A stretch of 64,000 nucleotides of DNA, taken from NCBI GenBank assembly GCA_028688325.1, contig JAQTYI010000001.1:168820-232819 (forward strand), read 5' to 3'. The stretch is from Candidatus Portnoybacteria bacterium (GTDB lineage Bacteria; Patescibacteriota; Minisyncoccia; Portnoybacterales; GWB1-42-6). Below the pieces are notes generated by a model. That model did not search any database. It was not told the origin of the DNA and saw nothing but the letters and a program-made list of their open reading frames with translations. The first letter of the stretch is position 1; the number at the start of each line of letters is the position of its first letter. The translations under genes and the position numbers were made by a program. Below are positions 3,357 through 64,000 of this stretch, one piece after another.

Positions 3357-3701
3357 CTGCCTTTTCTGATATCCGATATCCCGAATATTTAGAATTTTTG
3401 AGTTCGGATGTCGGATATCGCCGAATTTGATTTAATTAATTTTTACAAAATAAAAAACCCGCGAGACGATTAGTCCCCTTCGGGTTTTTCGCGAAATACC
3501 GGTTGTTTTTTTCTGTCTTTATTGTATGCTTTTTTCGAAATAGGTGTCAATGCGGATATATTGTGCGCGCAGCATATCCGATATATGCGCATCCATACAA
3601 CCGATATGATACTGAAAAATCCCCAAAACAAGCCAAAAAACGCATATTGCGACATTCGTGCATTTTTTATCTTTTTTATTCATAGAAACCTCTTCTTTAA
3701 C

Positions 3702-3710
3702 TTATCCACA
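3702..3710 (+). promoter_or_regulatory. Perfect DnaA box TTATCCACA.
   Basis: Exact 9-mer consensus. Confidence 0.5.
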
Positions 3711-3746
3711 AGCGCTTTAAAAAAATAAATATTTTTTTGCTTTGCC

Positions 3747-3755
3747 TGTGGATAA
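3747..3755 (-). promoter_or_regulatory. Perfect DnaA box (TGTGGATAA on the plus strand).
   Basis: Exact reverse-complement consensus. Confidence 0.5.
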
Positions 3756-4018
3756 AAAAATGCTTTTCTTGATAAACCGATATGCCGTTTTTTGGCTTAA
3801 AATAAGCATTTTTCGCTGTATCGGTTTTTTTATGATTTTTTATCCGATACGCCGGGCTTGACAAGATTTTAAAAAAACCTAAAATGAAAGCAGGACAATA
3901 AGTCCGGATTTCTAACAGACGGCCCCGCTTCGGCGGGGTTTTCTGTTTCACCGCGCCGAAGCTCGCAGCAATAACGGAGATGCGGAGGCGGGTTTTTCTA
4001 TTTCCGGTAAAAGTATCC

Positions 4019-4070
4019 GATGTCCGACATCCCGGATATTAAGGATCCCAAACCCCGGATGTCGGACATC
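4019..4070. repeat. GATGTCCGACATC-type hairpin repeat.
   Basis: GATGTCCGACATC-CCGGATATTAAGGATCCCAAACCCCG-GATGTCGGACATC. Confidence 0.7.
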
Positions 4071-4205
4071 ATAGAATGATACCGCTTACTTAAGATGACG
4101 CACCTCGCCGCCCTACAAATCTATCGCTTAACTATTTTCTATTGATTATAAAAACCCGCCTAATGGCGGGTTTTTGATTCTCAATTTATCGCTCTATTCT
4201 CTTTT

Positions 4206-4451
4206 TTAAAAGATATCTATCTTTCTTGCGGCCTTCTTGGCCCTGCTGCCTTCAAGCTGCCTCAGAAATGCTTCTATTTGGTCTAAGCGGTAAACTCTGT
4301 AGTTATTGCTTGGATGGCGGTATGCTTTCAACTTTCCCGCCTTATCCCAGTTGCGCAATGTCAAAGGAGTCACATGAAGAAGCTTTGCCGCATTATTTAT
4401 CATTAAATATTTCTGCATCTTTATTTTTTTCCGTTTTTTATTGATTATCAA
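4206..4451 (-). CDS. Small excisionase/MerR-like helix-turn-helix DNA-binding protein.
   Basis: The 81-aa ORF contains AAKLLHVTPLTLRNWDKAGKLKAYRHPSNNYRVYRLDQIEAFL, an HTH_17/excisionase-type motif. It sits inside the AT-rich non-coding block that carries DnaA boxes. Confidence 0.55.
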   Translation of the reverse strand: MIINKKRKKIKMQKYLMINNAAKLLHVTPLTLRNWDKAGKLKAYRHPSNNYRVYRLDQIEAFLRQLEGSRAKKAARKIDIF

Positions 4452-4508
4452 TGTTTATCAATGTTGTTTACTCTTATTTTATCTTTTTTATGATAACTGT
4501 CAATACCG

Positions 4509-4517
4509 TTATCCACA
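4509..4517 (+). promoter_or_regulatory. Perfect DnaA box TTATCCACA.
   Basis: Exact 9-mer consensus. Confidence 0.5.
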
Positions 4518-4613
4518 AAAAATACCCAAACAGCCATTCTATGCCCACACTATAAACATTGATAAAACATTTTTTAAACAACCATAAACATTCATACCAT
4601 TTTATCCTATTTT

Positions 4614-4697
4614 GATGTCCGACATCCCCCGCCTACGCCATACGGCTACGGCGGACAGGCAAATATTAATAATTTCTGATTTCGGATGTCGGACATC
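4614..4697. repeat. GATGTCCGACATC-type hairpin repeat (long loop).
   Basis: GATGTCCGACATC at 4614..4626 and GATGTCGGACATC at 4685..4697. Confidence 0.65.
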
Positions 4698-4867
4698 ATT
4701 AAATTATTCCCGCGGTTTTACCGCTCTTACCCCGCAAACCACCGTCTCGTATAACTTTGGACGCCCATTTTTTGACATTGAGTCATTGGGCATTCATTGG
4801 AAATTAGCCATTTGCCATTGGGATTTAAAAGCAAGAACGCGGGTTATTTTTATGATACTATTATACT

Positions 4868-16882: not shown

Positions 16883-16898
16883 AAATTACTTTAATAAC

Positions 16899-17052
16899 CG
16901 CGCATGGCAAAAATTTTATCAGAAAATAAAGTTGAGCCGAGTGTAAAATTTGCGTGCCGTGGTGGGGCCCCGACCGTCAGGTCGGGGCGTTGCGGATAGC
17001 AAATTTAGTGAGGCGAAACTTATATTTTCTTAAAATTTTATGCCCGCGCGGG
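16899..17052 (+). mobile_element. MITE-like repeat, family A, copy 1.
   Basis: About 150 bp with imperfect terminal inverted repeats CGCGCATGGCAAAAATTTT ... AAAATTTTATGCCCGCGCGG. The core hairpin is GGGGCCCCGACCGTCAGGTCGGGGCG. Highly similar to 44298..44448 and 56341..56492. Confidence 0.6.
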
Positions 17053-17134
17053 GCTTTTTTTGTTACTTTTTTGTGCCCACAAAAAAGTAGATAAAGCATT
17101 CTATAAAAGACGGTTCTTTGTTATAATAGCATCA

Positions 17135-17875
17135 ATGAACTACTTGCTCTACGCAATCTTGGGCATCGCACCCAGCATTATTTGGTTGCTGTTTTATTTG
17201 CACAAAGACCTGAACCCGGAACCCAAGCGCACGGTTTTGCTGGTCTTTTTGGGCGGCGCCTTTATGGGACCAGTGGCCATATTGGCGCAATTTTTAGCTA
17301 TGGCAGCACTCACCTCCTCCGCTCAATGGCCGCATTTTTTTGAAACGCTGAGTCAAAACCGTTACTTGTTCTTTATCAATGTCGTCCTTTTTGCTCCGCT
17401 CAGCGAAGAATTCCTGAAATACCTGGTTGTTAAGTGGCAAGTGCTCAAAAATCCCGATTTTGACGAGCCGCTTGACGCCATGATATACTTGATAATAAGC
17501 GCGCTGGGTTTTGCGGCAACTGAAAATTTGCTAAACATCTTTTTAATGCCCGGCGTCACGCTTCAGCTCGCTTTTTCCCAAGCGCTGGCCAGATTCCTGA
17601 GCGCCACCTTCCTTCACGCTCTCACTTCCGGAATTTTGGGATATTTCATCGCCCGCTCGTTGTTCCTTTTTAAACGCAAAAATGTCATTTTTATTTCCGG
17701 TTTCCTGCTGGCTGTCGCGCTTCACAGTTTCTACAATTATCTGGCCTGGCTTTTCAACGCGGAAAAAATCATCGCGCTGGCCATAGCGCTGCTACTGGCT
17801 GCAATGGGAGGAGTCGTCGGCTGGCAATTCCGCCGGCTGAAAAAACAATTGGCGGTTTGTAAAATAAAATATTGA
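17135..17875 (+). CDS. PrsW-family intramembrane protease.
   Basis: Multiple transmembrane helices and the conserved EEFLK, FAATEN and HSFYN motifs. The start was chosen at the ATG downstream of the repeat element. Confidence 0.6.
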   Translation: MNYLLYAILGIAPSIIWLLFYLHKDLNPEPKRTVLLVFLGGAFMGPVAILAQFLAMAALTSSAQWPHFFETLSQNRYLFFINVVLFAPLSEEFLKYLVVKWQVLKNPDFDEPLDAMIYLIISALGFAATENLLNIFLMPGVTLQLAFSQALARFLSATFLHALTSGILGYFIARSLFLFKRKNVIFISGFLLAVALHSFYNYLAWLFNAEKIIALAIALLLAAMGGVVGWQFRRLKKQLAVCKIKY

Positions 17876-26940: not shown

Positions 26941-27216
26941 AAGAATTTTATTAATCTCAAGTGAGGATTCACTTTTCTGAAACGCTCAGTTTTGCGAGCG
27001 GGCATGGTTCCGCCATAGGCGGAGAGCGAGCAAAACTGGCGAGTGAAATTTTCCACGCCGGGGAAAATTTCACGATTTCAGGAAGTTAATCCGAGCGAAT
27101 ATTTTATCGTCGCGCGGCGGTTTTTCTGGTTCTCTGGCGTCTACCCCGTAATTTATACGGGGCCCGGGCAAAAGAGAACGAAACAATTTCACGATTTTAA
27201 AAAGTAAATCCGAGTG

Positions 27217-29727
27217 TTATATGCATGTCACCGACGCCACCTTGTCTCCCGCCTCCAGCTTCATTATCCGAACGCCCTGCGTGGCTCGGCCCAAAGATGG
27301 AATTGAACCCAAAGATGTCCTGATGACCTGGCCGCGCTGAGAAATTGCAATAATGTCTTCCAGCCCCGCCTCTAAAATTTCGGCTGCCACGATGGGACCG
27401 GTCTTTGGCGTTACCTGCGCCGCTTTGATGCCCGACCCCCCGCGGCGCTGAATTTTGAATTGTTTTAAATCCGTCTTTTTCCCGTAGCCGTTCTCCATAA
27501 CAACCAGTAATTCTTGGCTTCCTGTTTTTTCCGAATTTTCATTTTGACTTTTGAGTTTTGAGTTTTGAGTTTTAACTATATCCATACCGACTACCATATC
27601 GCCTTTTTTCAGGCGCAAACCGCGCACGCCACCGGCTCCGCGTCCCATGGGCCGGGCGTCTTTTTCCTTAAAGCGCACGCTCTGGCCTTTGGCCGTGACC
27701 AAAATTATCTCATCGCTGCCCGATGACAGCTTAACCCAGCGCAGAAAATCATCCTTGCCCAACTTTATGGCGATAAGCCCCGAACGGCGAACATTGGAAA
27801 AGTCCTCAATGTGCGTTTTCTTTATTATACCATCTTTCGTGGTCATCACCAGATAATTTTCATCCCCATTGGTTCCGGTCGTTTTTGCCTCGCCCTTTTT
27901 CTTGTTTTTGAGATTTTCTTTCAACGCCACCAGCGCGTTGACTTCTTCTTTGGGCGCCAATTCCAAAAAGTTGACGATGGCTTGCCCGCGCGCCACGCGG
28001 CTGGCTTCGGGAATTTCGTAGGCCTTGGTCTGGAAGACCCGGCCGGTGTTGGTGAAAAACAGCAAATTATCGTGCGTGTTCACGCAAGCCAGATATTTCA
28101 CCATATCCTCTTCGCGCGTGGTGATGCCCGATACCCCCTTGCCGCCCCGGTGCTGGGGCTTGTAATTTTTGGGGCTCATTCGCTTAACATATCCCCCATC
28201 GGTAAGAGCGATAATGCAATCTTCTTCCGGAATAAGGTCCTCTTCCTTGAATTCTCCGACCGGTGAAATGAAGACCTTGGTGCGCCGCTCGTCGCCGAAT
28301 TTGGCTTTCAGATACGCCAGTTCGTCCTTGATGACGCCCAAGATTTTTTTGGGCGATTTCAACAATTCTTCCAATTCGGCGATTATCTGTTTTTTCTCTT
28401 TCAATTCATCCTCTATCTTTTTGCGCTCCAGGCCCGCCAGGGTCTGCAACTTCATTTCCAAGATGGCGGTGGATTGCAAATCGCTCAATTTGAATTTTTT
28501 GCAAAGTTCGCTATGCGCTTCTTCCTTGTTGGCGGATTTCTTGATGGTGGAAATTATCGCATCGATATGATCCAGCGCTTTTTTCAGGCCTTCCAATATA
28601 TGCGCCCGATCCTTGGCGCGTTGCAGGTCGAATTTGGTGCGCCGCGTAACGACATTATAGCGATGTTCCACATACTGCTCCAAAAATGATTTGAGCGACA
28701 AAACCTGCGGCTGCAGGCCGTCAACTAAAGCCAGCATATTCAAGTGGAATGTTTTTTGCAGATCCGTCAGTTTGTAAAGGCGGTTCAGTGTTTTTTGCGG
28801 ATAGGCCTCGCTCTTAAGATCAATGACGATGCGCACGCCGTCTTTGTCCGATTCATCGCGAATATCTTTGATGCCGTCAACTTTTTTCTCTTTAACGAGT
28901 TCCGCCATCGTTTCCAGCAACGACGATTTGTTTACCTGATAAGGAATTTCCGAAACAACTATCTGCTTGGCGCCTTTTTTATCTTCAATGATTTCGGCGA
29001 TGGCGCGGTTGACTATCGCTCCTTTGCCGGTTGAATATGATTGCACGATTGCCTGACGATCATAAATGGCTCCGCCGGTCGGAAAATCCGGCCCCTTGAT
29101 AAATTTTGTCAGATCCTCGGAGGTGGCTTTGGGATTTTCAATAAGATAGTTTATGCCATCCACCAGTTCCCCCAGGTTATGGGGCGGGATTGAAGTGGCC
29201 ATACCCACGGCGATGCCCAAAGAGCCGTTCAGCAAAAGCTGCGGCAATTTTGAAGGCAAAACCAAGGGCTCTTTGCGGGTGCCATCATAATTATCCGTCC
29301 AAGCAATCGTATCCTTATCTATGTCCAGCATCATCTCTTCGGCCAGCGCAGTCATGCGGCACTCGGTATAACGCATAGCCGCGGCGCCGTCGCCATCGAG
29401 CGAGCCGAAATTTCCCTGCCCTTGAACGAGCGGATATCTCATGGAAAAATCCTGCGCCATGCGCACCATACTTTCATAAACCGCGCTGTCGCCATGAGGA
29501 TGGTATTTTCCCAGCACTTCGCCGACGACCAGGGCTGATTTTCTGAGCTTGGCGCTGGAGCGCAGGCCCATATCCCACATCGCGTACAAAATCCGGCGAT
29601 GCACCGGCTTTAACCCGTCTCGGACATCCGGCAGCGCCCGGCCCACGATAACGCTCATGGCGTAGTCCAAATAACAGGTTTGCATTTCCTGGACTATTTC
29701 CTGGGGTTTGACATTTCCTATTTCCAT
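27217..29727 (-). CDS. gyrA: DNA gyrase subunit A.
   Basis: [23 protein letters not shown], the active-site Tyr region and the C-terminal beta-pinwheel repeats are present. [17 protein letters not shown] low-complexity insertion is also present. Confidence 0.95.
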
Positions 29728-31180: not shown

Positions 31181-31846
31181 TCAGCTCATCAGAAAGGCAA
31201 TCAAACTCGCCACCATTAACAAGAAATACACCGAGGAAAAAACTTTAAAAACTTTCTTACTCCATTCGACGGCGGCGGCGAAGGCGGCGAAGGCGAAGGC
31301 GGCGAAAGCGAAGGCGGTGGCGGCGGTGGCGGGGGCGGCGGCGGCGATGGCGGCGAAAGCGAAGGCGGTGGCGGCGGTGGCGGGGGCGGCGATGGCGGCG
31401 GCGGCATTGAATTTTCTAAAAAATACCGACATCCCCATCAGAACGACCGACAACACCCACAACACCAGATAGGGGCTAAACTTAATCTTCGGCTCCCCCT
31501 CAACGCCGCGCACCAGATGTATGCCTTGGGCATCGTAGATGATGCCTACAACCACGACAGGAGTATTCTTGATATGGAATAATCCTTCACGGGCAAACCG
31601 CACCTCTTCTGGCTTAACCGGCACGACGACGCCCGGTTTGGCATACGCCTGTTTCCAGGCGTCGCCGTAGGCGAGGACATCGTCGGCAATAACAACCCTC
31701 GTCTGCTTCCACTGTTCCGGCGGGCGGGAAGCCCGCAATCCGCCATTGCTCCCCACCTCAACGGTGGCGGCGCCGGCGATACCAACAAACACGATAACGG
31801 CAATGGCGATAAACATCATCACAACAGCTCTTCGCGCTTTCTTCAT
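31181..31846 (-). CDS. Hypothetical membrane protein with an Ala-rich tandem-repeat tail.
   Basis: N-terminal signal/transmembrane segment. AAIAAPATAATAFAFA repeats are encoded by a GC-rich tandem DNA repeat at 31262..31400. Confidence 0.5.
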   Translation of the reverse strand: MKKARRAVVMMFIAIAVIVFVGIAGAATVEVGSNGGLRASRPPEQWKQTRVVIADDVLAYGDAWKQAYAKPGVVVPVKPEEVRFAREGLFHIKNTPVVVVGIIYDAQGIHLVRGVEGEPKIKFSPYLVLWVLSVVLMGMSVFFRKFNAAAAIAAPATAATAFAFAAIAAAAPATAATAFAFAAFAFAAFAAAVEWSKKVFKVFSSVYFLLMVASLIAFLMS

Positions 31847-32010
31847 CTCATTCTCCTTTCTCTCTGTTTTTCCAGTCCGTTCCTTATTAGTGCTCTAAAA
31901 TAGAGCTTTTTAAGTTGCTACCCGTTAGCTTTTTCTGTTTTTTTATTTTAACATACCTGACCTATATTTGTCAATAGTTGAACTGGAATTCCCGAAATCC
32001 GCGCCTCTTG

Positions 32011-32080
32011 CCAGGAAGTAGAAATTCGGCCCTATACTGATTTTGTCGCCTACGGCGACAGCTGAATTTTCACTTCCTGG
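32011..32080 (+). promoter_or_regulatory. Conserved inverted-repeat element upstream of rpsA (copy 1 of 2).
   Basis: CCAGGAAGTAGAAATTCGGC ... GCTGAATTTTCACTTCCTGG with an inner hairpin GTCGCCTACGGCGAC. Homologous to 39448..39516 upstream of hup. Confidence 0.45.
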
Positions 32081-32328
32081 CTTGCCAAAAATTCTCTTTT
32101 ACCTTATACTAACCGAGTATTAAGCGCCGAAAAAACATTGCGAATAAGAAATAACAAGGTGATTTTCTCCTCCTCTTAATTTAAGAGGAGGCCGGGAGGA
32201 GTTATAATCTGCAATCTTTTAATTTATAACTCACCCTAACCCTCTCTTAACTTAAGAGAGGGAATAATTCCCTTTTAATCAAATTCGTATATTATAATAA
32301 TTAAAAAACGGCGTTATTATCGTTTTAA

Positions 32329-35444: not shown

Positions 35445-35472
35445 TTAACTCAACTTTGACCCGCTATCTTTT

Positions 35473-35544
35473 GGGCGTGTAGCTCAATGGTAGAGCACGA
35501 AGCTTATACCTTCGCGGTTCTAGGTTCGAATCCTAGCGCGCCCA
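35473..35544 (+). tRNA. tRNA with anticodon TAT (Ile-UAU type), flanked by a perfect 15-bp leader/trailer inverted repeat.
   Basis: Acceptor stem GGGCGTG/CGCGCCC, anticodon stem-loop CGAAG-CTTATAC-CTTCG, T-loop TTCGAAT. The flanks are GACCCGCTATCTTTT and AAAAGATAGCGGGTC. Confidence 0.6.
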
Positions 35545-35774
35545 CCCCAAAAGATAGCGGGTCAAAGCATAGCGCTGGTTCTGGGCCCGCCCTGTTAGAA
35601 ATTATTGAATAGCTTATTTTCACGCTAAAATTTATTCTGGAAATAGCTTGTTTTATTAGATTAGAAATTACTTTATAATTTCTAACAGGGTGAAAATCAT
35701 AGCGCGCGCACCGCGTAAAACCCCGCCTTAGCGGGGTCACGCAGCGCAGCCCCGTAAAAAATTAACAAAAATTT

Positions 35775-36767: not shown

Positions 36768-37817
36768 ATGTCCGCCCAGCGGCTGGACAAATTTTTACAA
36801 GAAAAGTTTCCGCAATATTCCCGCGCCTTTATCAAGGAACAGATAAAGCTCGGGAATTTTTTGGTTTACCCCGAGCAGAGCCGAGGGGTTAATGGAGAAA
36901 AAGTTAAGCCCTCTTATATTTTGCGCCAAGGCGACCAAGTCGCCTTGGCGCCGGGATTTAATTTACCCGACGCCGCGCAAATTTTACCCAATCCCGCCAT
37001 CAAGTTGGATATCATTTTTGAAAATGACGATGTTATCGTCATCAATAAACCGGCGGGATTATCAGTCCATCCGCGGCAAGACAAAAACGGCTTGCCCCTG
37101 CTTCAGGAAATAAATACGGCACTCGTTAGCGGATTGCTGGCATATTATCCGGCGATTACGGATGCGGGAGATATATTAAATCCTCCCCGGTCCTCCCTAA
37201 AGGGAGGGAGTAAAATCAGTTCCCCTCCTTTAGGAGGGGTTAGGCCAAAGGTCCTGGAAGGAGGAGATTTTTATCCTGCTAATATCCGTCCCGGCATCGT
37301 GCACCGCCTGGACAAAGACACTTCCGGCGTGATGATAATCGCCAAAAACCAAGCAAGTTTTGACTGGCTCAAAAAACAATTCAAAGAACGGCAGACAACA
37401 AAAAAATATCTGGCACTGGTCCATGGCTTGCTGAAGATTAAAGAAGGAGAGATTAAAACGCTGCTACACCGCGCAGTCTCCGACCCGACCAAACAGAAAG
37501 TCTCAAAGAACGAAGGAAAGGAAGCAATAACAGGATACAAGGTCATTAAGGAATTTAAGGGCTATTCACTGATTGAAGCCAGCCCCAAAACCGGCCGTTT
37601 GCACCAGATACGCGTGCATCTGGCGCACCTGAGCCACCCCGTGGCCGGCGATGCCAAATACGGCGATAAACGCCTGCCTATTTTGCCTGGCTTAGACCAC
37701 CAGTTCCTGCATGCCCAAGAGCTGAAAATAACCCTTCCCGGCGGCTCAAAAAAGACATTTTTTGCGCCTCTGCCGGCCGATCTGCAAGCCACTTTAGACA
37801 CCCTTGCCGGGAAGTGA
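36768..37817 (+). CDS. rluD: RluA-family 23S rRNA pseudouridine synthase (RluD-like), carrying an in-frame palindromic-element insertion.
   Basis: S4 domain (MSAQRLDKFLQEKF), VINKPAGLSVHP, and RPGIVHRLDKDTSG. An approximately 33-aa insert NPPRSSLKGGSKISSPPLGGVRPKVLEGG lies before the HRLD motif. Confidence 0.85.
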   Translation: MSAQRLDKFLQEKFPQYSRAFIKEQIKLGNFLVYPEQSRGVNGEKVKPSYILRQGDQVALAPGFNLPDAAQILPNPAIKLDIIFENDDVIVINKPAGLSVHPRQDKNGLPLLQEINTALVSGLLAYYPAITDAGDILNPPRSSLKGGSKISSPPLGGVRPKVLEGGDFYPANIRPGIVHRLDKDTSGVMIIAKNQASFDWLKKQFKERQTTKKYLALVHGLLKIKEGEIKTLLHRAVSDPTKQKVSKNEGKEAITGYKVIKEFKGYSLIEASPKTGRLHQIRVHLAHLSHPVAGDAKYGDKRLPILPGLDHQFLHAQELKITLPGGSKKTFFAPLPADLQATLDTLAGK

Positions 37818-37932
37818 AAGTTTGGCTGCCGTCCGCGGCGGCAAATTATTGGGTGGCCAAACTTCTACTTCCCGGCTTGAAAGAATATAAATAATATGAT
37901 AATATCTATTCGTAATTAGAGGCAACCCAAAT

Positions 37933-39447: not shown

Positions 39448-39516
39448 CCAGGCAGTAGAAATTCGGCTGGCGCTTGCAGCGCCAAAATCCAAATAAGCCG
39501 AATTTTCACTGCCTGG
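39448..39516 (+). promoter_or_regulatory. Conserved inverted-repeat element upstream of hup (copy 2 of 2).
   Basis: CCAGGCAGTAGAAATTCGGC ... GCCGAATTTTCACTGCCTGG with an inner hairpin GGCGCTTGCAGCGCC. Confidence 0.45.
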
Positions 39517-40478: not shown

Positions 40479-40504
40479 TATATGATTATTATTGCTTCCT
40501 AGAC

Positions 40505-40666
40505 CGCCCATACGAAAAATGACAATTTATTGTCATCCCGAACGAAGTGAGGGATCTCTGGCGAATGCCAGACCTGTTGCGCGGATCTCCGCCTAACGGC
40601 GGATCCCACGAGATCCCTCGCTACGCTCGGGACGACACTTCATGTCGACTTTATCATCGCGCGAGG
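40505..40666 (+). mobile_element. MITE-like repeat, family B, copy 1.
   Basis: About 160 bp, bounded by CCGCCCATACGAAAAAT ... TTTATCATCGCGCGAGG. The internal long hairpin is TCCCGAACGAAGTGAGGGATCTC / GAGATCCCTCGCTACGCTCGGGA. It is 90% identical to 61126..61286. The track ORF MRDLWRMPDLLRGSPP here is a translation of the repeat. Confidence 0.6.
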
Positions 40667-40711
40667 GTTTTTCTGGTTCTCTTTTGCCCGGGCGAAAGAG
40701 AACGAAACATT

Positions 40712-42244
40712 CTATCTTGCGTACTCTATAGTTCTCATCTCCCTTATCACCGTAACTTTAATATCGCCCGGATATTGCAATTCCTGCTGGATGCGGTCGG
40801 CCACATCGCGCGCCAGCTTCCTGGCCGAAATATCGTCAATCTTATCCGGTTGCACAAACACCCTGATCTCGCGGCCGGCCTGAATGGCATAGGACTTTTC
40901 AACGCCCTCAAAAGAGTTCGCCACTCGCTCCAATTCCTCCAAGCGTTTCAGATAGGCCTCCAAGGTGTCTTTTCTCGCGCCGGGGCGGGCACCGGAAATT
41001 TGGTCGGCTACCTGAACGATAACGCCCTCTAATGATTCGTAAGGATATTCTTCATGGTGCGACTGCATGGCCTTGATGACCTCTTCGGGCATATTGAATT
41101 TTTGCAGAATCATCTTGCCGATCTCAACATGAGAACCCTGGACTTCGTGGGTCACGGCCTTGCCGATATCGTGCAGCAGCCCCGCTTTTTTGGCCAGATT
41201 GACATCCGCGCCGACTTCCGCGGCGATGGAAGCGGCCAGATGCGCCACTTCAAGAGAGTGAAGCAAAACATTCTGGCCATAGCTGGTCCTCATGCTCAAG
41301 CGGCCCAAAATTCTGACCAGCTTGGGATCCAGCCCAGCCACGCCGGTATCATACACCGCGGCTTGTCCGGCCTGGGCGATCTTTTCACCAATTTCTTCTT
41401 TGGCTTTTTCCACCGCCTCTTCTATCCTGGCGGGCTGAATGCGGCCGTCGCTCATAAGTTTTTCCAGTGCTACTTTGGCGATCTGGCGGCGTACCGGATC
41501 AAATGCCGAAAGAATGATGGCGCCCGGAGTATCGTCTACTATAATCTCAACGCCAGTCAGTTTTTCCAGGGTCTTGATGTTGCGGCCTTCCTTGCCGATA
41601 ATGCGGCCCTTTAGCTCCTCGGACGGCAAGGCCACCGAAGAGGTCGTTATTTCAGCGCTTTGCGAAGCCGCATAGCGCTGCATCGCGTAAGTTAGGATGT
41701 TGCGTGCTTTCTTCTCCAACTCCTCTTTTCCTTCCTGCTCCAATTTTTGCACACGCTCCATCAAGATGGCGCCCTGTTCTTTTTCAATTTGAACAAGCAG
41801 TTCATCTTTGGCCTGCTCCTGGCTTAATTTGGCTACCCGTTCCAATTCCGTCAGTTTTTTCACCTGGATATTCAGCAGTTCCTCTTTTATCTCTTTCGCT
41901 TTTTCGGCGCGTTCGGCCACCTCGGCAAATTTCTTATCCAATTCATGCGACTTGCCTTCCAGCGCCTGCTCTTTTCGTTCCAAACGGTCTTCCAGACGCA
42001 TTATCTGTTGCTCTCGGTCCTTTTGTTCTCGCTTGGCTTCTTCCAATATTTGCATGGCCTTGTCTTTGGCCTGAATGACCGTCTCTTTGGCTTCGCGCTT
42101 GGCCTCCTCGGTCATTTTGCCAAGTTTGGCCTCAATGGAACCGGCCTGATTTTTGGCAATGCTTTGGCGCGACAAATAACCCAAAATAACGCCGGTAGCT
42201 AACCCGCCGACCCCGATAATAATGAGAATTAAATTAGAATCCAT
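40712..42244 (-). CDS. rny: Ribonuclease Y.
   Basis: N-terminal transmembrane helix, coiled coil, a KH domain, and an HD domain (HSLEVAHLA...LLHDIGK). Confidence 0.9.
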   Translation of the reverse strand: MDSNLILIIIGVGGLATGVILGYLSRQSIAKNQAGSIEAKLGKMTEEAKREAKETVIQAKDKAMQILEEAKREQKDREQQIMRLEDRLERKEQALEGKSHELDKKFAEVAERAEKAKEIKEELLNIQVKKLTELERVAKLSQEQAKDELLVQIEKEQGAILMERVQKLEQEGKEELEKKARNILTYAMQRYAASQSAEITTSSVALPSEELKGRIIGKEGRNIKTLEKLTGVEIIVDDTPGAIILSAFDPVRRQIAKVALEKLMSDGRIQPARIEEAVEKAKEEIGEKIAQAGQAAVYDTGVAGLDPKLVRILGRLSMRTSYGQNVLLHSLEVAHLAASIAAEVGADVNLAKKAGLLHDIGKAVTHEVQGSHVEIGKMILQKFNMPEEVIKAMQSHHEEYPYESLEGVIVQVADQISGARPGARKDTLEAYLKRLEELERVANSFEGVEKSYAIQAGREIRVFVQPDKIDDISARKLARDVADRIQQELQYPGDIKVTVIREMRTIEYAR

Positions 42245-44275: not shown

Positions 44276-44297
44276 AACGAGTTGTGCTTTAATTTAC

Positions 44298-44448
44298 CGC
44301 GCATACGAAAAATTTTGATAGAAAATAGCAATGAGCCGAGCGTCTAAATTTGCGTGCTGTGGCGGGGCCCCGACCGTCAGGTCGGGGCGTTGAGGATAGC
44401 AAATTTAGCGAGGCGAGTTCTATTTTCTCAAAATTTTATCGTCGCGCG
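44298..44448 (+). mobile_element. MITE-like repeat, family A, copy 2.
   Basis: CGCGCATACGAAAAATTTT ... AAAATTTTATCGTCGCGCGG with the core hairpin GGGGCCCCGACCGTCAGGTCGGGGCG. Confidence 0.6.
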
Positions 44449-44623
44449 GGAACTCTTTTGCTACTTTTCTGGTTACAGAAAAGTAGATGAGATAATACTA
44501 TGCGAATTGAACCTGGATTCCCGCTTTCGCGGGAATGACAAATCAAGCTATAAACTATACCAAGAAGCTCACCATCAACCCCGTAAAATCCCGCTACGCG
44601 GGACCACGGGGCAAGCAACGCCG

Positions 44624-46624
44624 CTAAACCAAGAATGATACCATCAATAGTGCAACTATGTTTATGATTTTTATCACGGGGTTGATAGCCGGGCCGGCTG
44701 TGTCTTTATACGGATCCCCCACCGTGTCGCCTGTCACCGCCGCCTGATGAGCCGGAGAACCCTTGCCGCCGTAGTGTCCTTCTTCAATATATTTTTTCGC
44801 GTTGTCCCAAGCCGCGCCGCCCGATGTCATCGAGATGGCGACAAATAAGCCCGTGATAATAGAACCAACCAGTAAACCGCCCACGGCTTTTGGGCCAAGA
44901 AGCAAGCCGACAATGATTGGCGCCAACACCGGAATCAACGCCGGCAATATCATGGCGCGAATCGCCGCTTTGGTAACAATATCGACGCACAAACCGTATT
45001 GCGGTTTTCCCGTGCCCTCCATGATGCCTTTGATTTCCTTGAACTGCCTGCGCACTTCCGTGACCACCGCCGCGCCGGCCTTGCCCACCGCCTGCATTGC
45101 CAATGAACTGAAAAGATATGGCAAAAGTCCGCCAATGAACAAACCGATAATGACTCTCGGATCGCTCAATTCAAACGCGATGCCCATGCCGCCGATGTCG
45201 GAAACCTCTTGGGCAAAAGATGCAAACAGCACCAGCGCCGCCAGCCCCGCCGAAGCGATGGCATAACCCTTTGTTACGGCCTTGGTCGTGTTACCGACAG
45301 AATCCAGAGCGTCGGTAATTTTACGCACACTTTCCGGCAGATCCGCCATCTCGGCGATGCCGCCGGCGTTATCCGTGATGGGTCCGAACGCGTCCACCGC
45401 CACCACTATTCCGGCCATTGAAAGCATACTCATCGCGGCCAGCGCCACGCCATAGATTCCGGCCAGATAAAATGCCGTAAATATGCCGGCGCAGATCAAA
45501 ATGACTGGCAACGAGGTCGATTGCATGGAAACCGCCAACCCCGTAATGATGTTGGTTCCGTGTCCCGTGATTGAGGCCTCAGCGATTGATTTTACGGGCT
45601 TAAAGTTTTTTGAAGTATAATATTCCGTGATCAGCACAACGCCAAATGTCACGACCAGCCCCACTATGGTTGAAAGATATAACGGCCAAAATGTGAAAGC
45701 AGCATCCACGACATTTTTGGTCAAAAATTTAATGGCCGGATAAAAACCAATGGCCGCAAAGATTGCCGAAGCCGCCAGGCCTTTATACAATGCGCCCATA
45801 ATATATTGCTTCTTGCCCAAACGCACGAAGAAAAATCCGGTAATTGACGCGAAAATGGAAATCGCGCCCAGCATCAACGGCAGCATAATCGCGTTGCTAA
45901 ATCCCGGAAACAGCAAATTGCCCAGGATCATGGCGGCAATGGCAGTCACCGCGTAGGTTTCAAAAAGGTCCGCGGCCATGCCGGCGCAGTCGCCCACATT
46001 ATCGCCCACATTGTCGGCGATAACCGCCGGGTTGCGCGGATCGTCTTCCGGAATGCCCGCTTCTACTTTGCCAACCAAGTCCGCGCCCACATCTGCGCCT
46101 TTGGTAAAAATGCCGCCGCCAAGCCGAGCGAAAACCGAGATCAAACTGCCGCCAAAACCCAAAGCCACCAAGGCCTTAAGGTCGCCGGTCAACCAATAAA
46201 AAATTGTAACGGAAAAAAGCCCCAGACCCACCACTAAAAGCCCGGTCACCGTTCCGCCTTCAAAAGCCACGGCCAAGGCCTTGGCCAGGCCTGTTTTGGC
46301 CGCCTGGGCGGTGCGGGAATTGGCGCGCACGGAGATATTCATGCCGACATATCCGGCCACTGCCGAAGCTATCGCGCCCAGAAGAAACCCGAGCATGGTC
46401 GTCAAATTGAAAAAATAAAACATCGCCGCCGCGATAACCACCGCCACCATAGCCACGGTGCGATATTGCCTGTTCATATAGGCCTTGGCGCCTTCGCGGA
46501 TGGCTTGGCTGATTTCCAGCATCTTGCCCTCGCCGGCCGGATACTTCATTATCCTGGCAGCCAGATAAGCGGTAAAAGCCACGGAGACCAAACTGGCGAT
46601 GATTGAGAAAAGCTGTATAGACAT
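44624..46624 (-). CDS. hppA: Membrane-bound proton/sodium-translocating pyrophosphatase.
   Basis: [19 protein letters not shown] and [21 protein letters not shown] are present, with about 15 transmembrane helices. Confidence 0.9.
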
Positions 46625-49185: not shown

Positions 49186-49204
49186 ATCATTTAAAAAAGT
49201 TTAT

Positions 49205-49337
49205 TCCGACATCCGATGTCCCAAATATTGGGCATTTTGCACCCAGGACATCGGATGTCGGAATATTGAATTTAATCTGTCGACATCCGACGACCTAAAA
49301 TTCAGAATTCTTTAATATTCGGGTTGTCGGATGTCGA
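49205..49337. repeat. Two tandem copies of the GATGTCCGACATC-type hairpin repeat.
   Basis: CCGACATCCGATGTCC-(24 nt)-GGACATCGGATGTCGG, followed by TCGACATCCGACGACC-(31 nt)-TTGTCGGATGTCGA. The first loop contains CAAATATTGGGCATT. Confidence 0.7.
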
Positions 49338-49343
49338 AAAGTT

Positions 49344-50033
49344 TTATTTGAAAAAATTTATTATTTTCTCTCCCTCCGCCAAATCCTCCTTGTGACCGTT
49401 GGGATGCCAGAAGTCCGCCTCCACTGCTTTAATTTTATACTTATCCGCCATTTGCGCCAAGGTCTGAGGCAAGCCGAACTCCTTGTCTGAAACCAGCACA
49501 AATGGATAGTCAAAAAAATCCTTGCTCATAAGATACGCGCCGATGTTCACTAGATTGCCGCCCTTCCTGTCTTTTAGAAATTTAAATTCCACCACTTGTT
49601 TTAGATTCCCTTCGCTGTCTTTTTCCACCACGCCAAAACGCGTGTTGTTTTCTATTTTTTTTACCAACAAAGCCAGATCGTGTCGCAAGAGCTTTTTAAG
49701 ATCTTTTTTATGATAAAGATCGTCGCCCATCAGCACCAGGAATCTGTCGGCCAGCATATCCTTGGCCAGGCAGATGGCACCGGCCGTGCCGTTAAAATCC
49801 GTCTGCTCGCAATAGCTAATCTTTCTGCCTTTATGCTCTCCGCCAAAATATTTACGGATCATATCGCCCTTGTAGCCCACGATAAAAATAATTTCCGAAA
49901 TTTCTTCCGGAAGGTTGTCTAAGGCATATTCGACTATGGGCCGGCCGCCGATTTTCAGCAGGGGCTTGGGGATTTCGTCAGTCAGCTCCCCCATCCTTGT
50001 GCCCCGCCCAGCGGCCAAAATTACTGCTTGCAT
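49344..50033 (-). CDS. Sugar-phosphate nucleotidyltransferase (NTP_transferase family).
   Basis: MQAVILAAGRGTRMG...PKPLL is present. The start was trimmed to avoid overlapping tRNA-Ala. Confidence 0.8.
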   Translation of the reverse strand: MQAVILAAGRGTRMGELTDEIPKPLLKIGGRPIVEYALDNLPEEISEIIFIVGYKGDMIRKYFGGEHKGRKISYCEQTDFNGTAGAICLAKDMLADRFLVLMGDDLYHKKDLKKLLRHDLALLVKKIENNTRFGVVEKDSEGNLKQVVEFKFLKDRKGGNLVNIGAYLMSKDFFDYPFVLVSDKEFGLPQTLAQMADKYKIKAVEADFWHPNGHKEDLAEGEKIINFFK

Positions 50034-56340: not shown

Positions 56341-56492
56341 CGCGCATACGAAAAATTTTGCCAGAAAATAGCAACGAGCCGAGCGTCTAAATTTGCGTGC
56401 TGTGGTGGGGCCCCGATCGTCAGGTCGGGGCGTTGCGGATAGCAAATTTAGTGAGACGAGTTCTATTTTCTCAAAATTTTATCGTCGCGCGG
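56341..56492 (+). mobile_element. MITE-like repeat, family A, copy 3.
   Basis: CGCGCATACGAAAAATTTT ... AAAATTTTATCGTCGCGCGG with the same core as the other two copies. Confidence 0.6.
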
Positions 56493-56539
56493 CGGTTTTT
56501 TACGCCGCTTTTTTGGCGGCAAAAAAGCGGCAAACTATT

Positions 56540-57361
56540 TTATATTCCAAATAACTTTTTGGCATTAGCCGTCGTCGCTTCCGCCACTTCTTCCAAACTG
56601 ATGCCGCGCAATTCCGCTACCTTTTGCGCCACATATTTCACATAACTCGGTTCGTTTCTTTTACCACGGAACGGCTCCGGGGTCAAATACGGGCAGTCGG
56701 TTTCCAGCAAGAGCCGCTCCAGCGGCATTTCTTTGACCGCGCGGTCATAATCGCGCGCAAAAGTGATGATGCCGTTAAAGCCCAGGTAAAAACCCATATT
56801 CAAATACTGCTCCGCCTGGTTCCACCGACCGGAAAAACTATGAATAACTCCCCGCAGGGGCTTATTGCCGACCATCGTCCAGGTTTTTAAGATTTTCAGC
56901 AGATCATCGTGCGCTTCGCGGCAATGCAGCATCACGGGCTTTTGCAAGCACTCAGCCAAACCTAATTGTTCCAACAGAACTTCTTTTTGCAATTCTGGCT
57001 TAGCTATATTTCTATAATAATCCAAACCGATCTCTCCTATCGCCACGACCATATCCTGCTGCGCCAGATTCTTATAATGCTCGTAATCAAATTCCTCCGC
57101 TTCCATTTTAAAATTCACGGTTTCTTGGTCATCCACCTTCGTTTCAATTTCCTGCGCGCGCAAAGAGCCGGGGTGCAGGCCGACGGCCGCAAAAACCCCG
57201 CGGCCGTATTTTTGAGCGTATTCAACCGCTCGTTGGCTCGTCTTCCTTTCCGAACCGACATTTATCAGCCAAGTATTTTCTTTTAGCGCGCGCCTGACTA
57301 CCTCGTCGCCATCGTCTTTATAGGCGCTGAAATTTATATGGGCGTGAGTATCAATAAGCAC
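56540..57361 (-). CDS. tatD: TatD-family hydrolase.
   Basis: IDTHAHINF, and GLHP...EIGLDY on a TIM-barrel metal-dependent hydrolase fold. The start is a GTG. Confidence 0.85.
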   Translation of the reverse strand: MLIDTHAHINFSAYKDDGDEVVRRALKENTWLINVGSERKTSQRAVEYAQKYGRGVFAAVGLHPGSLRAQEIETKVDDQETVNFKMEAEEFDYEHYKNLAQQDMVVAIGEIGLDYYRNIAKPELQKEVLLEQLGLAECLQKPVMLHCREAHDDLLKILKTWTMVGNKPLRGVIHSFSGRWNQAEQYLNMGFYLGFNGIITFARDYDRAVKEMPLERLLLETDCPYLTPEPFRGKRNEPSYVKYVAQKVAELRGISLEEVAEATTANAKKLFGI

Positions 57362-57370
57362 TTAAATGGC

Positions 57371-57423
57371 GATGTCCGACATCCAAAGATTAAAACGCAT
57401 TAATATTCGGGATGTCGGACATC
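57371..57423. repeat. GATGTCCGACATC-type hairpin repeat.
   Basis: GATGTCCGACATC-(27 nt, containing AATATTCGG)-GATGTCGGACATC. Confidence 0.7.
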
Positions 57424-57435
57424 GTAAAATTGGTA

Positions 57436-58854
57436 TTATTTGATCCTCGGAAACAGCCCTTCCCTCTTCTGTATCTTTTCCGCCTTAGCCGCGGCCAAAA
57501 TTTTTCCGGCGGTCTCGGGCATAAACGGCGCTAAGGCCTCCCCTATCGCAATGATGGCGCCCAAAAGTTCGGCCAGGGTTTTTTGCGCTTCGCCCTTGTT
57601 TGTTTTTACTAATTCCCAAAGTTTCGTTTCGTCTATTTTTTTATTGGCCCAGTCGATTTTCGCGATTATTTTTTCCAGGGCCTGATAAAGCTTAAAATTT
57701 TCCATTTCCGCGGCAATATCTATTTTATCCTTTTTCGCTTTTATCTTGCCGTCAAAATTTTTTTCAATAATATTGAAAACCCGGCTTACTAAATTTCCCA
57801 GCCCATTAGCCAGATCCGCGTTGTATTTTTCCGTCAGTTTTTCCCAGGAAATATCGCCGTCGTGGCCAAAAGGCGTTGAAGCGGCCAAAAGGTATCGGCT
57901 GGCATCCGCACTAAATTTCGCGACCATTTCCTCAGGCCATATCACATTGCCCAGTGATTTTGACATTTTTTGCCCGTTTATCGTAAAAAATCCATGCACA
58001 AAAAATCTCTTGGGTAATTTAAATCCCTGATTCAGCGCCAATAGCAGTCCCGGCCAGATGGTGGAATGCACCCGAACAATGTCTTTGGCCATCAACTGGG
58101 CATCTGCGGGCCAAAATTTCAGCTCTTTTTCATTATCGCCATCCCAACCAAGTCCGGTCAGATAATTCAACAAGGCATCCACCCAAACATAGGTCGTGTG
58201 CTCCTTGTCAAAAGGCAAAGGAATCCCCCATTTGACATTCTTGCGGGAGATGGAAATATCATTTAACCCGCTGCGGATAAAATTTAAAACCTCGCTCTTG
58301 CGCTCTTTGGGCTCGATCAAGAGTTCATCGTTTGAAATCCTTTTGGCCAGCTCTCTGCCAAAAAATGACAGTTTAAAAAAATAGCTTTCCTCTTTCATCA
58401 ATTGCGGCTCAACCTGGTGCTCCGGGCATTTGCCGTCGATTAGATCATCAGCAATTTTATACTGCTCGCAACCCGTGCAATAAAGCCCTTCGTATGTTCC
58501 CTGATAAATAAAATCCCGCTCATACATCCTTTGCAAGGCACGCTTGATGGCCGCTTCGTGCGCAGCGTCCGTAGTGCGGATGAATTTATCATATTTAACA
58601 TTAAAAAGTTTCCAGGCATCCTGGAAATCCTGCGCTCGATTGTCGCAAAAGTCCTTCGGGGATTGACCCGCCTTTTCGGCCGCCTGCGCCACCTTGGCGC
58701 CATGCTCATCTGTGCCGGTCAGAAAGAAGACCTCCTCGCCTTGTGATTTGTGCCAGCGCGCCAAAATATCCGCCGCCACGCTGGTATAGGCATGGCCGAT
58801 ATGCGGCTTGTCGTTTACATAATAAATGGGAGTGGTGATATAAAATTTATTCAT
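57436..58854 (-). CDS. metG: Methionine--tRNA ligase (short form).
   Basis: HIGH (PHIGHAYT) and KMSKS motifs, and the anticodon-binding domain. Confidence 0.9.
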   Translation of the reverse strand: MNKFYITTPIYYVNDKPHIGHAYTSVAADILARWHKSQGEEVFFLTGTDEHGAKVAQAAEKAGQSPKDFCDNRAQDFQDAWKLFNVKYDKFIRTTDAAHEAAIKRALQRMYERDFIYQGTYEGLYCTGCEQYKIADDLIDGKCPEHQVEPQLMKEESYFFKLSFFGRELAKRISNDELLIEPKERKSEVLNFIRSGLNDISISRKNVKWGIPLPFDKEHTTYVWVDALLNYLTGLGWDGDNEKELKFWPADAQLMAKDIVRVHSTIWPGLLLALNQGFKLPKRFFVHGFFTINGQKMSKSLGNVIWPEEMVAKFSADASRYLLAASTPFGHDGDISWEKLTEKYNADLANGLGNLVSRVFNIIEKNFDGKIKAKKDKIDIAAEMENFKLYQALEKIIAKIDWANKKIDETKLWELVKTNKGEAQKTLAELLGAIIAIGEALAPFMPETAGKILAAAKAEKIQKREGLFPRIK

Positions 58855-61125: not shown

Positions 61126-61286
61126 CCGCCCATACGAAAAATAACAATTTATTGTCCTCCCGAACGAAGTGAGAGATCTCTGGCGAATGCCAGACCCGTT
61201 GCGCGGATCTCCGCCTGATGGCGGATCCCGCGAGATCCCTCGCTACGCTCGGGACGACACTTCGTGTCGATTTTATCGTCGGGCGG
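61126..61286 (+). mobile_element. MITE-like repeat, family B, copy 2.
   Basis: CCGCCCATACGAAAAAT ... TTTTATCGTCGGGCGG; the interior is 90% identical to 40505..40666. Confidence 0.6.
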
Positions 61287-61352
61287 CGGTTTTTTCCGCC
61301 GCTTTGGCGTTTACCCCGTTCTGCGGGGCCGGCAAAAAAGCGGCAAAAGAAT

Positions 61353-63844: not shown

Positions 63845-64000
63845 AAATAAAAACCCAATCATCAAGATACAAGATACAAACAAGTTGCAATAATCAAATT
63901 CCAAAAATTCAAACCGGTTTGATTATTGAATTTTGGGATTTGAAATTTGTTTGGTTATTGTTTCTTGGTTATTGTATCTTACCGGTTAAATATTTTTTTA

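Follow-up and report, generated by a model that had tools for sequence, protein, structure and literature searches.

The stretch of DNA considered here, called the window throughout, comprises 64,000 nucleotides of contig JAQTYI010000001.1 (positions 168,820 to 232,819, forward strand) from a Portnoybacteria-like genome of the Candidate Phyla Radiation (CPR), or Patescibacteria, and carries five palindromic repeats in the gaps between its genes. A preliminary description of the window had divided these repeats into two families, A and B, of transposable elements of the miniature inverted-repeat type (MITEs) with unrelated interiors and common termini. All five exist and lie on the plus strand, at coordinates that agree with that description to within 1-2 nt, and a lone fragment of the 3' terminus, first placed at 27101-27120, was confirmed at 27101-27117. 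Along with the window, flanks of 5 kb on the left and 10 kb on the right were read, which makes ~79 kb out of a genome of 789 kb; window coordinates are used. The copies, with their scores from covariance model R1 where these apply, and the T-tract and second hairpin (H2) found on the 3' side of each, are as follows.

16898-17051, plus strand: family A copy (A_16898), 150.8 bits, between tsaD (stop at 16882) and prsW.
17052-17103, plus strand: T-tract and H2 of the TTAC-T6-GTG / CAC-A6-GTAG type, with the conserved tail AAAGCATTCTA.
27101-27185, plus strand: solo remnant made up of a 3' terminus (27101-27117), a T-tract and a GTTCTC-type H2 with a nested hairpin, the 5' half being absent.
40504-40664, plus strand: family B copy (B_40504), 20.3 bits through its termini only, 25 nt upstream of the ymdB start (40478, minus strand).
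40665-40711, plus strand: T-tract and H2 of the GTTCTC-TTTTG / CGAAAG-AGAAC type, abutting the RNase Y stop (40712).
44297-44449, plus strand: family A copy, 168.2 bits, 21 nt upstream of the tig start (44275, minus strand).
44450-44491, plus strand: T-tract and H2 of the CTAC-TTTTCTG / CAGAAAA-GTAG type, which also occurs at the orthologous hppA-tig junction of the related contig L013.
56340-56492, plus strand: family A copy, 161.3 bits, 14 nt upstream of the def start (56325, minus strand).
56493-56536, plus strand: T-tract and H2 of the GCCGC-T6 / A6-GCGGC type, abutting the tatD stop (56540).
61126-61286, plus strand: family B copy, 19 nt upstream of the start of perM, an AI-2E transporter gene (61106, minus strand).
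61287-61352, plus strand: T-tract and GCCGC-type H2 with a CCCCG...CGGGG hairpin nested in its loop, abutting the M16 peptidase stop (61353).

The copies had been described as lying directly after the stop codons of tsaD, tig, def, ymdB and perM. This holds for the tsaD copy alone, no other being preceded by a stop codon in its own orientation; the genes tig, def, ymdB and perM run on the minus strand, and the elements beside them lie 14-25 nt upstream of their starts. By Pfam gene calls these four antisense copies sit downstream of the stops of the H+-PPase (hppA), TatD, RNase Y and M16 peptidase genes, the copy at 44297-44449 being antisense to both tig and hppA. The solo remnant is located between the gyrA stop and the start of a methyltransferase gene. 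The family B interior also yields an open reading frame (ORF, 40547-41032), and since this runs antisense to RNase Y it is spurious, as had been supposed.

The interiors of A and B are indeed unrelated to each other, and the termini are indeed common to both, so that in the B copy at 40504-40664 A-type termini enclose an unrelated interior. At up to 3 mismatches CCGCSCATACGAAAAAT and ATTTTATCGTCGSGCGG have seven matches each in the window, against 2.1 and 0.8 expected, and since seven matches were reached in none of 100 shuffles the sharing is not due to chance. The terminus consensus given in the preliminary description fails for A_16898, whose termini (CATGGCA and TGCCCG) differ from it by three compensatory pair changes; the 3' end of B_40504, ACTTTATCATCGCGCGA, departs from it as well. 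Pairing between the termini, described there as imperfect inverted repeats, is real and extends over 17-20 nt in all five copies. Rather than free-standing transposase sites, however, these terminal inverted repeats (TIRs) are the basal stem of a hairpin of ~150 nt that spans the whole element and folds at -66 to -90 kcal/mol, in which CCGCGC-AU-ACGA-A5U4 pairs with A4U4-A-UCGU-C-GCGCGG.

The repeat unit as originally delimited is too short, because the T-tract and H2, present 3' of every copy including the solo fragment, had been missed. H2 has the form N5-T(4-6)...A(4-6)-N'5 and falls into 5-6 discrete, covarying sequence types (GCCGC/GCGGC, CTAC/GTAG, GTTCTC/GAGAAC, GCCAC/GTGGC and TTAC/GTAG), which are common to families A and B and to several genomes; some copies have an extra CCCCG...CGGGG hairpin nested in the H2 loop. 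A semi-conserved AAAGYATT tail comes next and adjoins the neighbouring gene's stop codon. The conserved unit therefore runs ~45-65 nt past the 3' TIR, and its 5' end has no inverted counterpart. No H2 lacking the 3' terminus was found, with one possible exception at the end of contig L037.

The relationship between the two families is clarified by L020, a near-identical strain (perM 98% identical in amino acids, flanks ~95% in nucleotides), which has an A-type interior at the 61126 site where the window carries B. L020 matches the window through the flank and the 5' terminus up to GAAAAAT (...CCGCCCATACGAAAAAT); identity resumes at ATTTTATCGTCGGGCGG, and the 3' terminus from ATTTTATCG and the H2 are identical. 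What looked like two families with shared TIRs is thus one scaffold with exchangeable interiors, and interior replacement within it explains the common termini better than the two MITE families under one transposase that had been proposed. The five repeats are this one scaffold, consisting of terminal stem, T-tract, H2 and AAAGYATT tail, with different inserts.

Analysis of copies from other genomes proved informative about the constraint acting on the scaffold. A two-terminus pattern scan gave 6 genome-contig loci, 27 metagenome loci and no viral contigs. Five of the six genome-contig loci are true family A in other Patescibacteria metagenome-assembled genomes (MAGs), the sixth (Acidobacteriaceae) being a chance match. 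The repeats are therefore multi-copy, dispersed and non-coding, as the preliminary description had it, and are so well beyond the window, at 5 genome-contig and 27 metagenome loci from Patescibacteria and groundwater-type samples. An alignment, A2, was built from 28 unique family A copies, 3 from the window and 25 from other contigs. The search pattern fixed 22 terminal bases, whose invariance therefore proves nothing, and it is chiefly the interior helices, free of this constraint, that carry the covariation statistics. Paired cells make up 98.6% in A2 against 91.2% in shuffles, and both sides of the pair change in 18 of the 40 pairs against 8.3 in shuffles, a value reached by none of 500 shuffles; slid controls gave 1-6. 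Within the TIR of A_16898 itself ACGA/TCGT has become GGCA/TGCC with the AU/C bulge retained, and three adjacent compensatory changes of this kind point to selection on pairing and not on a duplex binding site. Substitution is thus compensatory rather than random, an outcome that the preliminary description had itself listed as telling against mobile elements of the MITE type.

The order of features in A2 is a terminal stem, a variable helix, a conserved GCCGAGC/GCGAGGC segment, a second helix and an apical module. The conserved segment is a GC helix with a tandem G·A mismatch (CCGAG/CGAGG), the two strands of which are swapped in L026 and L030, and the apical modules are of at least four unrelated kinds. 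A K-turn reading of this segment was rejected, as the order of bulge and G·A does not fit and the tandem G·A is symmetric within a GC helix. The plus strand, which bears the T-tract, folds better in 27 of the 28 copies, by a mean of 8 kcal/mol, and family A has 100 G·U pairs on the plus strand against 43 on the minus; several of the differences between the 56340 copy and its ortholog in L033 also give G·U pairs on the plus strand. Family B shows the opposite asymmetry because its interior is a different element. The covariation is selection on single-strand pairing, and fits RNA or single-stranded DNA (ssDNA), and a function or a need of propagation, alike. Searches of Rfam with the window and both families gave no match at the gathering threshold; at E up to 10 there was only a 20-bit match to Chloroflexi-1 (gathering score 80) on one B copy, absent from the second.

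If the repeats were classical MITEs, they would be two deletion derivatives mobilised on their shared TIRs by one DDE transposase, with insertion sequence (IS) ends matching CCGCGCATACGAAAAAT. Their inverted-repeat-like termini, their small size, multiple copies and non-coding nature, their dispersal over several Patescibacteria genomes and the presence/absence differences among orthologous junctions discussed below would all suit such an origin, as would the frequent breakage of contigs at or beside elements, which is expected of repeats. However, no target-site duplication (TSD) was found whether the boundary was set at the TIR (32 copies) or at H2 (23 copies), an absence that the preliminary description had also listed as telling against its reading, and direct repeats of k = 2-4 are not enriched at any offset, the best count for k = 4 being 4-5 copies and derived from T-runs. 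Nor did a Pfam scan of the 30 annotated window ORFs reveal a transposase, and no terminus pairs at IS distance occur in ~330 kb of window and loci. When the compensatory changes with retained bulge inside the TIR of A_16898, the conserved sequence beyond the 3' TIR without a 5' counterpart and an orientation bias of 28:2 are also considered, we regard a classical MITE origin as very unlikely.

Other signs of mobility were sought with similar outcome. Duplication of the neighbouring stop codon (TAA/TAG) at the other end of the element was rejected, being adjacent in only 4-5 of ~25 copies. No gene for a tyrosine transposase associated with repetitive extragenic palindromic (REP) sequences (RAYT, of the Y1/HUH type) and flanked by repeats turned up in the window or its flanks (10 kb on the right, 5 kb on the left). 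The A/B scaffold was not found in viral contigs, and there is accordingly no sign of a phage vector. Analogies with attC sites, IS200/IS605 ends and bridge RNAs were dropped: R'/R'' cores are missing from the termini, the two hairpins are dissimilar and no recombinase lies nearby. Two small GIY-YIG ORFs (82-84 aa) are present on the minus strand, at 8451-8705 by tRNA-Ser and at 15195-15443 by tRNA-Glu, and no link between them and the repeats was seen.

Relatives of the window genome were found through trigger-factor homologues, and among them the order nusA-hppA-tig-clpP-rny-ymdB-hup is kept. Comparison with these genomes, as the preliminary description had envisaged, revealed empty orthologous junctions of 9-30 nt. 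The rny-ymdB junction is empty in L036 (9-nt spacer; tig 80% identical in amino acids) and in L038 (21 nt). It is occupied by B in the window, by an A-type element in L013 (tig 65%) and L017, by an element of a further family, C, in L035 (tig 91%) and L056, and by other palindromes in L039 and L055. The hppA-tig junction of L038 is likewise an empty 30-nt spacer. Presence is therefore patchy, and some relatives with empty junctions are closer to the window genome than some carriers. The shared termini have no matches in the syntenic 12-21 kb of L035-L039, and model R1 recovered no extra diverged copy in the window, the 10 kb to the right, the 5 kb to the left or seven syntenic loci of relatives, and no family A in the L035-L039, L055 and L056 loci, where the sole trace of the family is the H2-like sequence at the end of L037.

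Paralogous copies are 94% identical in the window and 86% in L013, against 64% for the same junction compared between the two, and within a subfamily, copies from different contigs and samples are 94-96% identical. The L033 ortholog of the 56340 copy is 95.4% identical, and in the comparison of L033 with the window conservation is 95-100% for element and H2 against ~90% for flanking coding DNA.

This conservation above the level of the flanks, together with the occupation of the same junctions in divergent genomes, could indicate a selected, strand-specific RNA element, acting as a portable terminator or insulator against antisense or read-in transcription or as a small RNA. The covariation, which far exceeds its controls, would be in keeping with this, and so would a G·U asymmetry that favours the strand with the U-tract. 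Also consistent are the terminators on the plus strand: a consensus scan called terminator-like sites on that strand at the H2 of 56493-56536 (stems 56489-56508 and 56504-56531), the GCCGC-type H2 reading GCGGCGG-T6-CCGCCGC-T6 as a clean second terminator, and L024 and L034 have an additional clean CCCCGC...GCGGGG-T6 terminator at the H2 position. The one sense copy, moreover, lies exactly at the end of tsaD and precedes a promoter-like box, TGTTATAAT. Nevertheless, some relatives with an empty junction are closer than others in which it is occupied, which argues that the element is dispensable. Different genomes fill one and the same junction with hairpins of unrelated families, entire interiors are replaceable, a decayed remnant persists at 27101, and no conserved promoter on the plus strand is seen in the 5' flanks, which are themselves not conserved. 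The reading as a functional RNA is weakened by this, although it is compatible with domesticated selfish repeats, and as an explanation in itself we consider it unlikely. Two promoter candidates within the element were examined and set aside: a sigma-70 promoter in the termini, where the conserved CGATAAAAT has no -35 partner, and a TA(A/G)AAT box at the H2-side end, which is common and overlaps stop codons, with an inconsistent -35 or TG extension.

It might also be supposed that no transposition-like step was involved, and that hairpins grew locally among native terminators with template switching or gene conversion between them. The mosaic nesting of modules, with hairpins within H2 loops and variable apices, has this appearance, as do the direct repeats of 24 and 36 nt that flank hairpin modules at 44555-44647 and 27066-27221 and the fact that the breakpoints of the interior swap fall in the shared termini. 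Yet units of 150-200 nt that are 94-96% identical occur at non-homologous loci and in genomes whose proteins differ by 20-40%, which requires copying to new sites or horizontal transfer, and the empty orthologous sites hold no proto-hairpin. Local growth of this kind seems scarcely credible.

The orientation of the elements follows a strict rule. In 28 of 30 copies all neighbours that could be determined are on the opposite strand, the exceptions being A_16898, which is in sense at the end of tsaD, and the L005 copy, which is in a divergent gap. Of the 26 copies that have a gene on their right, 18 have 41-51 nt between the 3' terminus and the stop codon of that adjacent upstream gene, approximately the length of T-tract and H2, and the next ATG is mostly 9-45 nt from the 5' terminus. 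The strand of the genes thus presents hairpins followed by A-runs, and the plus strand a hairpin followed by a U-tract; a hairpin and U-tract on the transcribed strand of the upstream gene, as in an intrinsic terminator, is found at the tsaD copy only. Because the plus strand is an intrinsic terminator in form, sense copies would be polar, and only antisense insertions would be tolerated within gene pairs. An orientation filter based on the terminator is probably at work. GC skew is negative on the plus strand throughout the window, and the six window copies therefore share one orientation relative to the inferred direction of replication; accounts based on genes and on replication both fit the window data. 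The promoter-like box downstream of A_16898 is an apparent extended -10 (17110-17138) that ends 7 nt before the prsW ATG, which suggests that the prsW mRNA is leaderless, and most genes downstream of elements have no Shine-Dalgarno sequence.

The explanation that we favour, and hold with moderate confidence, is a new modular family of repeats of the REP, BIME (bacterial interspersed mosaic element) and ERIC kind, which would have spread as single-strand hairpins, been shuffled by recombination and been filtered for orientation. The elements would be selfish or semi-domesticated DNA, copied or recombined as single-strand hairpins by a route that does not involve a DDE enzyme; candidates are an enzyme of the REP type (Y1-like) or a process independent of transposase, as for the CGTC REPs discussed below. 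Homologous recombination or gene conversion through the scaffold could then shuffle the interiors and homogenise the copies within a genome. Selection might filter orientation, such that inside co-transcribed gene pairs only antisense copies are tolerated, and the sole sense copy (16898) may be tolerated since it stands at the end of an operon, ahead of the prsW promoter. The family has not been described before in Rfam or in the literature found, and searches of the latter for CPR MITEs, structured repeats and the REP motif sequence returned nothing relevant to these elements.

Several observations weigh against this explanation. No mobilising enzyme was identified within the ~79 kb read, and no clean pair of filled and empty sites was found between near-identical genomes. 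The boundaries of insertion and the absence of TSDs rest on comparisons at 20-35% protein divergence and on copy statistics. Covariation, non-Watson-Crick features, conservation above the flanks and strict orientation fit a selected RNA function equally. Finally, the strand that folds better is not the one read as mRNA in the neighbouring genes, nor, judged by GC skew, is it the lagging-strand template, and a simple IS200/REP model of ssDNA would not predict this.

A combination of these ideas may be considered as well. Terminal stem, T-tract and H2 could form a docking scaffold for site-specific exchange of interiors, at AAAAAT|...|ATTTT or in hairpin loops, which the host would keep as a strand-specific terminator against antisense transcripts between the operon genes of a minimal CPR genome. 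The modules exchanged would be the A apices, REP dimers and nested CCCCG hairpins, and the mechanism would be independent of transposase or would involve a novel enzyme. Such a scaffold, if real, would represent a new class of cassette-bearing intergenic element and not another REP or MITE; we think it distinctly unlikely.

The modular REP-like repeat that we favour has parallels among known systems. With REP, REPIN and BIME sequences (PMC3733652; PMC3116915) it shares an extragenic location, mostly between unidirectional genes and near stop codons, hairpins that tolerate G·T and of which inverted pairs fold into one larger stem-loop, mosaics with other motifs, several families per genome and the absence of a TSD. 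It differs in that family A with the scaffold measures ~150 nt plus ~45 nt against 20-40 nt for a REP, lacks the canonical tag and the 8-9-bp stem starting in AT, has a constant terminal stem with T-tract and second hairpin, and resides in a CPR host. Intrinsic terminators are similar in having, on the plus strand, a GC-closed hairpin followed by a T-tract; in contrast, the strand concerned is here antisense to both neighbours in 28 of 30 copies, and the elements are dispersed repeats, 94-96% identical, that are not specific to a gene.

ERIC/IRU and Correia/NEMIS elements are MITE-like long imperfect palindromes of enterobacteria and Neisseria, respectively. They resemble the repeats described here in being imperfect palindromes of 100-160 nt in transcribed intergenic regions, in having size variants due to internal insertions, and in their orientation-dependent effects on transcripts and ability to act as terminators or RNase substrates. 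A duplicated TA reportedly flanks ERIC and Correia elements, and Correia has TIRs of 26 bp and an IHF site, whereas the present elements have no TSD and carry an extra hairpin module outside the inverted termini. The pneumococcal BOX element is modular (boxA-boxB-boxC), its interior varying by copy number of one module. BOX likewise has constant terminal modules, a variable interior, a stable hairpin, an intergenic location and no known transposase; its sequence is unrelated, it lacks a T-tract and H2, and the interiors found here are unrelated to one another.

REP-type sequences are found in the insert of family B and beside a family A copy. The features concerned, with those of family C, are:

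40531-40637, both strands: core of the B interior, two TGTC-tagged REP-like hairpins head to head.
44513-44540, minus strand: canonical small REP beside a family A copy, TGTC + ATTCCCGC + GAAA + GCGGGAAT + CCA.
26955-27100, plus strand: branched hairpin of family C next to the solo remnant, -61 kcal/mol (z = -5.5), ending in AATCCGAGCGAAT, which has the CCGAG motif of family A.

The two REP arms of the B interior lie at 40531-40558 on the plus strand and 40610-40637 on the minus, separated by a 51-nt spacer with two small stem-loops, and each has an 8-bp stem starting in AT, a 5-nt loop and a tandem G·A. The plus arm reads TGTC-ATCCCGAA-CGAAG-TGAGGGAT-CTC, its tail being CTC and not CCA, and the minus arm TGTC-GTCCCGAG-CGTAG-CGAGGGAT, with the tags facing outward. 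Published CGTC-type REPs have a CGTC (or TGTC/CCTC) tag, an AT-starting stem of 8-9 bp, a loop of 4-5 nt and a CCA-like tail, are mostly arranged as head-to-head dimers with a spacer of 20-100 bp that often contains small stem-loops, and have no known dedicated transposase (PMC3733652). The B interior has the tag, stem, loop and head-to-head dimer described there (PMC3733652), and family A and the scaffold do not. That survey, of 2013, names several other phyla and does not mention CPR/Patescibacteria (PMC3733652). The REP motif TCCCGAGCGAAGCGAGGGATC is present in 12 unrelated viral-labelled contigs, which indicates a widespread type of REP. In L040-L051, IMG/VR contigs of mostly high GC, the motif TGTCATCCCGAGCGAAGCGAGGGATC often occurs as inverted pairs and gives rise to spurious ORFs resembling 'VIPSEARDL'. 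The same CCGAG/CGAGG tandem-GA core occurs in the mid-helix of family A and in the REP arms, which hints at a common origin.

Homologues of family C are located at the rny-ymdB junction in L035 (4221-4363) and L056 (13795-13980), and in L032 (2074-2166), and its sub-modules stand alone in L002, L022, L024 and L031. The solo 3' terminus with its H2 is bracketed in the window by a 36-nt direct repeat (27066-27101 and 27185-27221, 27 of 36 identical), the first copy of which is the end of family C. This arrangement points either to an insertion that made a long duplication or to recombination of one C copy with another.

CPR genomes are usually called streamlined, and it is thus of interest that the gaps between housekeeping genes (hppA-tig, rny-ymdB, tatD-def, M16-perM and gyrA-methyltransferase) here carry fast-turnover families of palindromic repeats, one of which combines an unusually clear single-strand structural constraint with a strict rule of orientation. 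The elements break assemblies, yield spurious ORFs and can mislead the annotation of CPR MAGs. While not a categorically new kind of system, they offer, through strain-level interior swaps and clear empty sites, a tractable case for the spread of REP-type repeats that lack a transposase, and they make one ask whether hosts recruit such repeats as terminators or insulators.

A number of other palindromes and repeats were observed nearby. On the minus strand a 45-nt GC hairpin is flanked by two copies (44555-44578 and 44624-44647; 19 of 24 positions identical) of the terminal 24 nt of hppA with its stop codon, which looks as if a hairpin had inserted into the 3' end of hppA with a long duplication; by eye, L056 (8550-8660) appears to have the same arrangement. 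An AT-rich long hairpin at 63850-63995 (CAAGATACAAGATACAAACAAG... / ...CTTGGTTATTGTATCTT; z = -4.9) lies upstream of an NIF3-like gene, at the junction of which L008 and L009 carry family A, and a similar AT-rich palindrome occupies rny-ymdB in L039. A family of small palindromes on GGATGTCGGACATCC occurs at ~3366-4710, 12522-12552, 49202-49348 and 57346-57448, spaced by ~630-650 nt around 3.4-4.7 kb, and three hairpins related to each other, whose arms measure 21 nt (for example CCAGGCAGTAGAAATTCGGCT / AGCCGAATTTTCACTGCCTGG), are found at 39448-39516, 37806-37876 and 32010-32081, in other intergenic gaps.

Two tRNA genes are enclosed by inverted repeats. The gene for tRNA-Ile(TAT) lies within a perfect 22-nt repeat, CTTTGACCCGCTATCTTTTGGG / CCCAAAAGATAGCGGGTCAAAG (35454-35567), and that for tRNA-Ser(TGA) (8261-8376) within one of 22 nt that is 91% complementary; both look like long processing stems around single tRNAs. 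The left end of the window (1-3356, minus strand) is inside an ORF of 4577 aa with no Pfam match on record, and a tandem repeat rich in GGC/GAA (31261-31410; period 9-15 nt) is contained in a 221-aa ORF of the minus strand that has no Pfam match.

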